A stretch of DNA of 64,000 nt from positions 6,411,808 to 6,475,807 of the forward strand of contig CM082585.2 in assembly GCA_040954595.2 (NCBI GenBank). The letters are read 5' to 3'. The stretch comes from Balanoglossus misakiensis (Eukaryota; Animalia; Hemichordata). How positions within the stretch are numbered: the first letter of the stretch is position 1; every line of letters starts with the position of its first letter. This document shows positions 21,666 through 24,600 of this stretch, in pieces. The position numbers were made by a program, and so were the translations under genes. Under the pieces are notes generated by a model. That model saw only the letters and a list, made by a program, of their open reading frames with translations, searched no databases and was not told the DNA's origin.

Positions 21666-24600
21666 TTAGTCGACTTGTACCAGAGTGATACGAGTCCTGG
21701 ACGCATTGACATGCCACACGTTCAAATCTTCATACGCATCAATGGCGAGGTCAAACTGATCGGGCGTGTAGCCTTTCGCGAGACTCGCCTGCCGCGCGTC
21801 TTCGTACTTGATGCTCTTTGCACCTTTGCCTTTGATCATATCTCGGATGAAACCAAAGATCACGTCCTCAGCACGCTGTATTCTGTAAAAAATAAAGCAC
21901 AGAGACAAGTTTTTGATCAGTTCAGGTTCAATTTAGAAGTATTATGGACTTGCAACTGTGGTGGTCAGAATTGACAAAGGTACAAACTGAGTATCAGGAG
22001 AGTCACCCCCTGGACATAAAATTGACAAAGGTACAAACTGAAAGCTTTAGACTAGAAGTATCAGGAGAGTCACCCCCTGGACATATCCCCATCCAGACAT
22101 TTCCAACCCAGGGCTAAGGGGCAGGGATCCAGTAGACAAAATGTCCAGGGGGGCCTCTCCTAGAACCACATTTCCTACCTCGTGGTTGTTTCCTGTTGCC
22201 CCGTCAAAGAATCCTTGGACATTTCCATCAACCTCATTGCTTCGTTCACGTCTTCCTTTCCCACCACATCCACCAGACGAAGACGAGCCTACAGAATTTA
22301 AACAGAGTTACAAGTAGTGAGACTCTATTTACAAGCTCAGAAATCACTCAGTATTCCCTTCTGACAAGTTTGTATCTAAAGTTCAGAAGTAGCCATCAGT
22401 AAAATATATCTATGACCCTTAGTTAACTGAAGCCATACACTGTTGTCCATACCAGAGCATGTAGCCCCACTATCTTGTGCAATGAGAAATTAATTACACC
22501 TCTTTGCACAGGACAGCAAGGCTGCATACAATGTATTTTTCACTCTAATATTGGTTTTGTGAACAATTAGTTCGCAACAACACTTTCCATCCTGGGGACA
22601 GCAACACCATGAGGACCCCTCCAATAATCACTCACAGTTGCTCTGAACACAGAAAGTGCGTTGATTCTGCAATGCAAACACAATCCAGGGTGGACGGCTG
22701 AAGGGTGTTGTGTGGTGTGAGATAGAGCCCCACTAAAGTGTGCAATGAGGTTTAGTGATTTCACTGATTGCAGACTATAATGAGGCTTTAGCGTCACACA
22801 ATGGTCGCTTGGTCATCCACGGTTTTCTGCCGATTGTTTCACAGGAACTTTTTAACCACATGCGCCAAGACAACTTACTTCCCAGACACTGACTGATGAT
22901 CATTACACATTTATGTTTTCCATCTTGGACAAATGTGTATCTTACCATCGCCCTTGTGGTGATTGGCTTAAATATTTATCAGTTAATAGTTGTATTTTCA
23001 TAACGTGCGTTTGTTAAATTAAATTTCTTTCTGGGATATGACAAAACTCCCTTGCCTCCTATCACCCCCATATCTCTGTGTAGTGGTCCAATTTTACCAC
23101 AGGAAACAATTGATTTGGACCAAACCATGGTAGTGAAAGGGTTAGGACATTTCAAAACACAACTTATGTTACACTGTGTGATCACAACCACAACATACCA
23201 CTGCATCCAACTCATGCAACCATCTGAGAGACAAATTAGAAGATACAGTCCCTGATTAGAATTTCCCCATATCGATAACATCACCAACTCACCAATGCTG
23301 TAGCCAGACGCAGAATTGCCAGCAACGTACGGGGCGACGTAAACGTTGTATCTTTACTGTTCCGAGCTTCTTTCCTCATTTCCACGTAGGCACCGGTTAT
23401 GTAATCGGTCAGTGCTTCAGGAACGAGTGGATTTTTGGTCTTGCAAAGTGCAACATAACGTCTGAAAATAAATGTAAAATTCAGTATGACATCTACCAAA
23501 TACATATTTCTTACAAAACTTGGAAATTGTAAAGAACATGTATTCAAATCGGGAACCAACTTGGTGGTGAGTCTATATACACTATGCAAAGAAATTTCAT
23601 CAAACTGAACAGATAACCATGTAATACAAAGTATCATAACTGAAGTATATAAATGCTGCTTACCGCATCAGATCCATATCCAACGGCTTGAACTGAGACG
23701 GTGGCTGAACGGAGTGCTGATGTACATAGGTGATGTGCTGTGCTAACCTGCAAATGAAAGATTGCGAGAAATTGTTTGAAGCAGATCGAAATCAAACAAG
23801 AACACAAGACTTCAACATTTACTCTTGAGTGAATAACTTTAAGGATTTCACGTGTGTGTGTGTCAACACCCGACACCAAAGGTCACAAAGAGATCGGGGG
23901 GTTTAGCACGCTTTGGTTACCATGACCACAGCAATTGCAGCATCAGAGTCAATCGTGCATCTTTGTACATACCATGCCCCACTATAAAGTGCAATGGAGA
24001 ACAAATATACTCCTTTTGCACTTAATAATAGGGCATTGTATATACCAAGTCTTATAAAGTTGGCGTTGCTTTTTGTTACCAAGACTCATTTGAGAAATGG
24101 ACAGAAATACTTCTCCGTTTGCGGGCGTTTGGTTTATAGAGGTTCTTTAAACATAAGCTTCTATGTCAAAGAGACTAGAAAAGGTGTTTGGTATAGACAG
24201 GTTTCCAGATTAGACAGAGTTTGGTTTAGAGACACAGGTTTTAGGGAAGGTCGTTCTTGCCCGAGGAGGGGGTTAACTTCAATATCATACAGCACGACTG
24301 AGGGATGGAGGGGTAATTCTCAAAAGATGATGACAGTGTTACAGTTTGGAGCCCCACTATTGCGTGCAATCAGAACATAGACCAAAACTAATGACACCCA
24401 ATAGCGAGGCTTCAAACAGAACATTCTCTCTTCAAAGTCGTCCACTTCCTGTCACGAAAAACTTCAACTTCCTTGGCGGTTGGTCCGAAAACTCCGCGTA
24501 ACAATGTTTTTGCATCAAGCCCCACTGTTCAGTGCAATGCGCATCGTGTTCCAATCACAGTTGCACCAAATAGCAGGGCTTCATACAACACAGTAATCTC

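Follow-up and report, generated by a model that had tools for sequence, protein, structure and literature searches.

Seven predicted Mir-4818 microRNA hairpins in an MCM7 gene, two of them in the counterpart of human MCM7 intron 13

In humans the miR-106b-25 cluster is located in intron 13 of the replication gene MCM7 (PMC3985634, in the part of that paper available to us), and the locus described here raises the question of whether an invertebrate MCM7 gene holds related microRNAs in the same intron and, if it does, whether the two sets share a history. The initial annotation of this DNA had placed two hairpins with a miR-25-like seed in such an intron and proposed that MCM7 hosting of a miR-92/25 gene predates vertebrates. 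We followed up this proposal in the window, by which we mean the whole stretch of 64,000 nucleotides that was analysed.

The host gene lies on the minus strand. Ptychodera MCM7, used as a tblastn query, returned 16 exon blocks in the window, and exon 1 (33851-33821, minus strand) was read by eye; the whole-gene reading frame is thus a composite of tblastn blocks and single exons. The gene and the parts of it that concern us are these:

21666..33851, minus strand: MCM7 host gene, coding span, 17 exons and 16 introns (PDB matches, 16 tblastn blocks, exon 1 by eye)
25481-23748, minus strand: 1734-nt intron inside human codon 532, intron 13 of the 16 in the window gene, holding hairpins A to E
23664..23747, minus strand: 84-nt exon, human residues 533-559, separating the two hairpin-bearing introns
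23461-23293, minus strand: 169-nt exon, human residues 561-616, counterpart of human exon 13 (ungapped alignment)
23292-22289, minus strand: 1004-nt GT-AG intron, phase 0, between human residues 616 and 617, holding hairpins F and G
22288-22179, minus strand: 110-nt exon, its first residue equal to human 617, counterpart of human exon 14
21882-21666, minus strand: last coding exon of MCM7

Since the 16 tblastn blocks and exon 1 make 17 exons, intron 23292-22289 is intron 15 of 16; it is therefore the second to last and stands between the 169-nt and 110-nt exons, just as first annotated. We take human MCM7 to have 15 exons, compared with about 17 in the window gene, and intron 25481-23748 would, going by exon sizes, presumably be human intron 11. 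A pair of exons of 212 and 182 nt (25993-25482, minus strand) occupies the place of what is presumably a single human exon of 394 nt, giving an extra intron, and another intron beyond the presumed human structure lies at 31188-30767 (minus strand), with the extra split near 31127. One intron is of the GC-AG type and begins with GC at 32313-32312 (minus strand), after the MCM7 exon ending at 32314. In the last MCM7 intron, a G+C-rich inverted repeat at 22064-22163 (z -3.4, 1/200 shuffles, no seed) adjoins a short direct duplication at about 21975-22085 and looks like a small mobile-element remnant. Downstream of MCM7, coding-like sequence of a neighbour gene, apparently on the opposite strand, lies at about 19420-19700, and a stem at 20180-20276 (minus strand) weakly resembles three unrelated microRNA models of Rfam (E 0.36-9.4) and has no seed.

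The intron that holds F and G could be matched to the human gene residue by residue. On the 719-aa MCM7 chain in PDB 22vt/6xtx, which we take to be human, the 169-nt exon covers residues 561-616 in an ungapped alignment, and the 110-nt exon takes up at residue 617. Primer j of PMC3985634, in the part of that paper available, bridges the human MCM7 intron 13/exon 14 junction; reverse-complemented and read by eye, it shows the acceptor AG and then the codons of Ala-Arg-Leu-Arg-Met, residues 617-621; primer b from the same source, in human exon 13, codes for the residues immediately before 616 (also by eye). Because the codons in primer j are those of residues 617-621, the window intron and human intron 13 interrupt the protein at the identical junction and in the identical phase. 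Judged by these aligned gene structures, intron 23292-22289 is orthologous to human MCM7 intron 13, and hairpins F and G lie where miR-106b~25 does, in the intron between residues 616 and 617. The identification of this intron with the host of human miR-106b~93~25, which the initial annotation had made, is thereby borne out. We did not find this same-intron match to human in print.

The two introns together contain seven predicted precursors, which we letter in the direction of transcription:

25156..25215, minus strand: predicted precursor A, 60 nt, divergent member, by position likely P3
24647..24706, minus strand: predicted precursor B, 60 nt, divergent member, by position likely P1
24518..24578, minus strand: predicted precursor C, 61 nt, by position likely P4
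24350..24409, minus strand: predicted precursor D, 60 nt, by position likely P7
23975..24033, minus strand: predicted precursor E, 59 nt, by position likely P2
22726..22785, minus strand: predicted precursor F, the first hairpin of the initial annotation, 60 nt, by position likely Mir-4818-P5
22747-22726, minus strand: predicted mature 3p arm of F
22463..22521, minus strand: predicted precursor G, the second hairpin of the initial annotation, 59 nt, by position likely Mir-4818-P6
22484-22463, minus strand: predicted mature 3p arm of G

All seven fold as single stems (z -4.8 to -8.2), and for each of them 0 of 200 shuffles were as stable. The two hairpins originally reported in 22289..23292 are both genuine, with folding energies of -32.2 kcal/mol for F (z -4.95) and -40.9 kcal/mol for G (z -6.47); the interval given for the finding encloses these two and misses five of the seven family members, which lie in intron 25481-23748. 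Every hairpin carries AUUGCAC on its 3' arm, which we take to be the MIR-92 seed and to be the seed that miR-25 has on its own 3' arm. A scan of seed-heptamer sites found 20 in the window; exactly 7 belong to the 3' arm of a hairpin with one loop (z <= -5.4), and the other 13 have z >= -1.9. The heptamer count is marginal over the whole window (20 vs 13.4 expected; 5/100 shuffles as high), and the heptamer is enriched both in intron 23292-22289 (2 vs 0.09 expected; 1/500 shuffles) and in intron 25481-23748 (5 vs 0.15 expected; 0/500 shuffles). A model built from the seven hairpins found no eighth copy, either in the window or in 11 MCM7 loci. Between F and G, a further candidate stem at 22563-22672 was discarded because 20 of 200 shuffles were as stable (z -1.3).

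In their geometry the hairpins resemble canonical Drosha/Dicer precursors, with a single stem of about 60 nt, a basal stem, a loop and processing motifs, the cut sites being predicted. The predicted precursors measure 59-61 nt and their loops 14-16 nt, and 19-21 of the 22 mature positions are paired. Among the seven copies the predicted mature 3' arms are identical at 15-19 of 22 positions; positions 2-8 and 15-18 are invariant in all seven, and positions 9-11 are variable. A basal UG stands at -13 to -15 in six of the seven copies, and exactly at -14 in four (background 0.10 per position), CNNC stands at +16 to +18 in four (background 0.105), and two-sided change affects 17 of the 29 consensus pairs, with 87.7% of cells pairing and 0 of 500 shuffles as high, although the seven paralogs are related and not independent, so that these motif and covariation counts overstate significance and represent no true probability. 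Hairpin G is the copy without a basal UG, and its basal stem is lost in a wider fold window and kept in the 200-shuffle folding run. A mirtron reading is ruled out by position, since even the closest precursor ends are over 170 nt away from a splice site.

Variation around the hairpins could be followed in two runs, X1 and X2, which consist of DNA contigs from one sample, possibly the one from which the window itself derives. The five joints at which contigs of these runs skip sequence all lie outside the seven predicted precursors, and of 40 substitutions compared, out of 181, a single one affects a precursor, namely the loop of G. This pattern may hint at constraint on the precursors. Large allelic replacements at 22302-22449 and 22661-22716 (X1, X2) end no more than about 10-15 nt from predicted precursors G and F, respectively, and the one at 22661-22716 overlaps the downstream CNNC region of F. 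High-copy repeat fragments occupy 23076-23239 and 24060-24300, with a summed depth of 29,000-145,000 compared with about 70-160, and one X1 contig skips the repeat at 24059-24320.

To which family do these hairpins belong? At relaxed thresholds the best Rfam family was mir-4818 for all seven (32.2-49.7 bits, E 7e-9 to 9e-4), and beyond the seed the resemblance includes the 3' arms of F and G, each 20/22 identical to the mir-4818 consensus arm (by eye), as well as the invariant positions 15-18. The gathering threshold of RF04013 (mir-4818) is 92 bits, and at gathering scores Rfam gave 0 matches in the window; because the scores fall below this threshold, filing under Mir-4818 rests on synteny (the sense strand of mcm7, in a layout of two plus five) and on mature-arm identity rather than on formal Rfam membership. 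Rfam presumably also contains mir-92 and mir-25 models, and neither matched at E <= 10 in searches of 12 kb and of 451 nt without a positive control; the mir-17 model likewise gave none over the same spans. With no match to a mir-92 or mir-25 model, it is the seed, present in seven of seven, that ties the hairpins to Mir-92, and similarity to that family outside the seed was not found. Membership in miR-25 itself is rejected on the same grounds, mir-4818 being the best family instead. We consider it very likely, from sequence comparison and position, that the seven hairpins are Mir-4818 microRNA genes.

Such a cluster has been catalogued. In PMC11848845, of which we had part, '4818~mcm7' is given as a family originating in hemichordates (Table 2), and the accessible rows of Dataset S1 place seven Mir-4818 genes on the mcm7 sense strand of Saccoglossus, two near the 3' end and five upstream, and six in mcm7 of Ptychodera, in a layout of two plus four. 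The window cluster is like those of Saccoglossus kowalevskii and Ptychodera flava in host, strand and layout and also in precursor length (59-62 nt in the two species, 59-61 nt in the window), and copies P1 and P3, which Dataset S1 assigns to separate sequence clusters, are placed as the window's two most divergent hairpins, B and A. The same source, in its available parts, does not map host introns or relate Mir-4818 to Mir-92, and its Dataset S1 gives the hemichordate genes named Mir-92 as lying elsewhere, either intergenic or antisense. The host protein agrees with this assignment. Among the best 120 of 171 matches, the top single-domain matches of the 169-nt exon protein were Ptychodera (95%), Glandiceps (93%) and Saccoglossus (93%), and two entries with larger summed scores were 88% and 84% identical. 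The MCM7 proteins of the three enteropneusts are tied, with 80 of 85 residues identical to the window protein, and are its nearest named relatives in a ranking by similarity rather than a tree, which is the hemichordate host expected of MIR-4818. The window DNA is therefore likely that of an enteropneust. The window cluster differs from both catalogued ones in its spacings, its exon protein is 93-95% identical to theirs, and it scores below the Rfam threshold. Given that order, precursor lengths and positions of the divergent members match but spacings differ, the cluster is likely a further species' copy of the catalogued hemichordate Mir-4818 cluster. Cluster and host are thus already in print; a reading of Mir-4818 as a diverged Mir-92, and the recurrence of this seed in replication genes, we did not find stated.

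The vertebrate cluster miR-106b~93~25 includes a 3'-arm microRNA, miR-25, with what we take to be the same seed. It has gene, strand and the junction between residues 616 and 617 in common with the window cluster (PMC3985634, available part). The window cluster differs in that it is without Mir-17 or Mir-19 members, has one seed in all seven copies and keeps five of them in another intron. No mir-17 match was found, and the only other stem in intron 23292-22289 is the rejected one between F and G. This fits the suggestion in the initial annotation that miR-17-seed members were added later, and in the accessible part of PMC11848845 both 17~mcm7 and 19~mcm7 are dated to vertebrates (Table 2). 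An alternative 3' splice site of the human kind finds no support between F and G: the best internal AG there scores 6.1, compared with 7.8 for the acceptor of this intron and 4.1-16.4 across 15 of the 16 training acceptors, the remaining one having been placed one base off.

The expectation that other invertebrate MCM7 genes would hold such hairpins was borne out in part. Among the 47 mcm7-hosted rows found in the available part of Dataset S1 (PMC11848845), the only invertebrate ones come from Ciona (three) and from the two other hemichordates, Saccoglossus (seven) and Ptychodera (six), and amphioxus, echinoderms, molluscs and lamprey have no mcm7 row among the 47. In the same dataset the Ciona intestinalis genes, Mir-92-o69/o70/o71 at 1951289-1952093 of NC_020166.2, lie 1.2-1.9 kb from the 3' end of mcm7, and human miR-25 lies 0.84 kb from that of MCM7. 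Like the window hairpins, the Ciona copies are tandem, invertebrate, on the sense strand and near the mcm7 3' end, with a Mir-92 seed; they are filed as MIR-92 rather than MIR-4818, the comparison being one of position and filing. Three Mir-92 copies in mcm7 of Ciona make it likely that MCM7 hosting predates vertebrates, which supports the original claim if the intron is the same. The claim holds less well for the hairpins studied here, which match mir-4818 and not miR-25/92.

The genes mcm5, mcm6, wdr76, topbp1, pola1 and psmc3ip are active in DNA replication or repair. In the rows compared from Dataset S1 of PMC11848845, sense-strand Mir-92 genes are hosted by mcm5, mcm6, wdr76 and one unnamed gene in amphioxus, by topbp1 in two echinoderms, by pola1 in Ciona and by psmc3ip in oyster, and many other invertebrate Mir-92 copies are intergenic. 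Mir-92 copies thus recur in introns of replication and repair genes, namely mcm5, mcm6, mcm7, pola1, topbp1, wdr76 and psmc3ip. These copies share the seed family and the sense-intronic position with the window cluster and differ from it in host gene; in the rows compared, each of the other host genes is confined to one lineage, which makes these separate arrivals.

A scan of metagenomes, covering 27 of 64 parts, provided at least 19 further MCM7 loci, whose nearest named proteins are mostly lophotrochozoan, a lead rather than a placement. The intron between residues 616 and 617 is complete in five of them (L001, L002, L003, L005 and L012) and present in part in three (L004, L006 and L007); since L003 and L005 are near-identical, the five complete introns represent about four lineages. 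None of these loci contains a seed-bearing hairpin, and the stems in these orthologous introns are weak (z -1.7 to -2.7). No Rfam microRNA match was obtained in the 10 of 19 loci scanned for one, nor any match to the seven-hairpin model in the 11 of 19 scanned with it. Three genomic loci (L008, L017 and L019) have no intron at this junction. The original hemichordate microRNA papers appeared in subscription journals. As such journals were thinly covered, our not finding in print the same-intron match, Mir-4818 as a diverged Mir-92 or the recurrence in replication genes is weak evidence of absence. Literature listings likewise showed no report on invertebrate MCM7-hosted microRNAs, and PMC2884542 makes no mention of them in its available part.

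To account for the same seed in the same intron of both lineages, we set a single gain followed by several losses against MCM7 and this intron having been hit twice. Hairpins F and G agree with human miR-25 in gene, strand, arm, seed and intron, which argues for shared descent; against it, five of the copies, among them A and B, which diverge most, lie in the other intron, and because Ciona, Saccoglossus and Ptychodera supply the only invertebrate mcm7 rows in the accessible Dataset S1, losses in amphioxus, echinoderms and lamprey are needed. Our judgement leans slightly towards descent of the Mir-4818 hairpins from a Mir-92 copy that lay in MCM7 before the hemichordate/chordate split. A Mir-92 duplicate could instead have entered MCM7 independently in the hemichordate stem, probably in the upstream intron first, with a coincidental match to intron 13 after local spread and with selection repeatedly favouring this seed under S-phase promoters; we regard this course as plausible but less likely. 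The presence of Mir-92 in mcm5, mcm6, wdr76, topbp1, pola1, mcm7 and psmc3ip across invertebrates speaks for it, since a family that enters replication genes repeatedly makes meeting its seed twice in MCM7 less surprising, and it gains plausibility from amphioxus, echinoderms and lamprey, whose Mir-92 genes are intergenic or in other genes and which, like molluscs, have no mcm7 row in the part of Dataset S1 at hand (PMC11848845). The upstream position of most copies and of the most divergent ones, and the five complete orthologous introns of the metagenome loci that carry no such hairpin, point the same way, and with 2 of 16 introns occupied the chance of matching the human one is about 1 in 8. 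Independent arrival must, however, strike the same gene at least twice and the same intron as well, and Ciona and jawed vertebrates show, in the rows available, that the MCM7 seat is long-lasting and, as in lamprey, losable. Nor does the precursor tree nest F and G within the upstream group, with 0 of 4 branches well supported and a clade of F and G not rejected (p-AU 0.14).

Kinship with Mir-92 would be lacking altogether if Mir-4818 had arisen de novo in a hemichordate MCM7 intron with a convergent miR-92 seed, which we think improbable. The absence of an Rfam mir-92 or mir-25 match would suit such an origin, as would the classing of Mir-4818 as a family born in mcm7 (PMC11848845, Table 2, available part) and the location of hemichordate Mir-92 genes elsewhere (Dataset S1), but intron sequence is unlikely to arrive from scratch at exactly this 7-mer seed, on the arm that carries it in miR-25 and in the gene and intron where miR-25 lies. 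Moreover, Table 1 of that paper lets 'born in' include diversification of an existing intragenic microRNA, and 'seed' has 0 occurrences in its main text as accessible to us, so seed identity was not weighed there. Least probable of all is an origin of the hairpins as inverted repeats of transposons or by chance folding, in which case they would not be microRNA genes. The lack of any match at Rfam gathering scores and the high-copy repeat fragments in both introns could be read in this way, but the model of the seven hairpins finds no further copy in 110 kb, most hairpin bins are single-copy by read depth with the extreme high-copy bins between hairpins, arm conservation is asymmetric as in microRNAs, and the orthologous loci are annotated as microRNAs in two other hemichordates (PMC11848845, available rows). 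Returning to descent from a Mir-92 copy in MCM7, we tentatively propose, a little short of favouring it outright, that MIR-4818 may be the hemichordate descendant of the very copy that became miR-25, with MCM7 intron 13 its seat since the deuterostome ancestor.

MCM7 is a proliferation-induced gene. From the arrangement of the locus we infer that the seven hairpins would be transcribed with the MCM7 pre-mRNA, on its sense strand and from a proliferation-linked promoter, and given the induction of the host, seven copies would provide a high dose of the seed in dividing cells. Drosha/DGCR8 would crop the hairpins from this pre-mRNA, a basal UG and CNNC being present in most copies, as the human cluster is cropped from MCM7 pre-mRNA (PMC3985634, available part). 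Dicer would then cut, 3'-arm RNAs of about 22 nt with the miR-92/25 seed would be loaded, and mRNAs with miR-92-type sites would be repressed in dividing cells. As one seed is common to all seven 3'-arm RNAs, they would address largely one target set, held in common with Mir-92. The copies themselves may have spread by local tandem copying and between the two introns.

With the cluster itself already catalogued, its interest lies in how it came about. Should descent explain the shared intron, vertebrate miR-17~92 and miR-106b~25 would occupy a seat that predates the chordates, and a hemichordate family published as 'de novo' would be a renamed Mir-92. Should convergence explain it, the cluster would clearly exemplify how a single microRNA seed enters DNA-replication genes again and again. 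Were MCM7 intron 13 truly ancestral, it would be the founding seat at which the Mir-17 and Mir-19 families later arose, and its persistence in MCM7, together with the separate Mir-92 arrivals in mcm5, mcm6, pola1 and topbp1, would speak of an old circuit, rebuilt more than once, between this seed and S-phase transcription.
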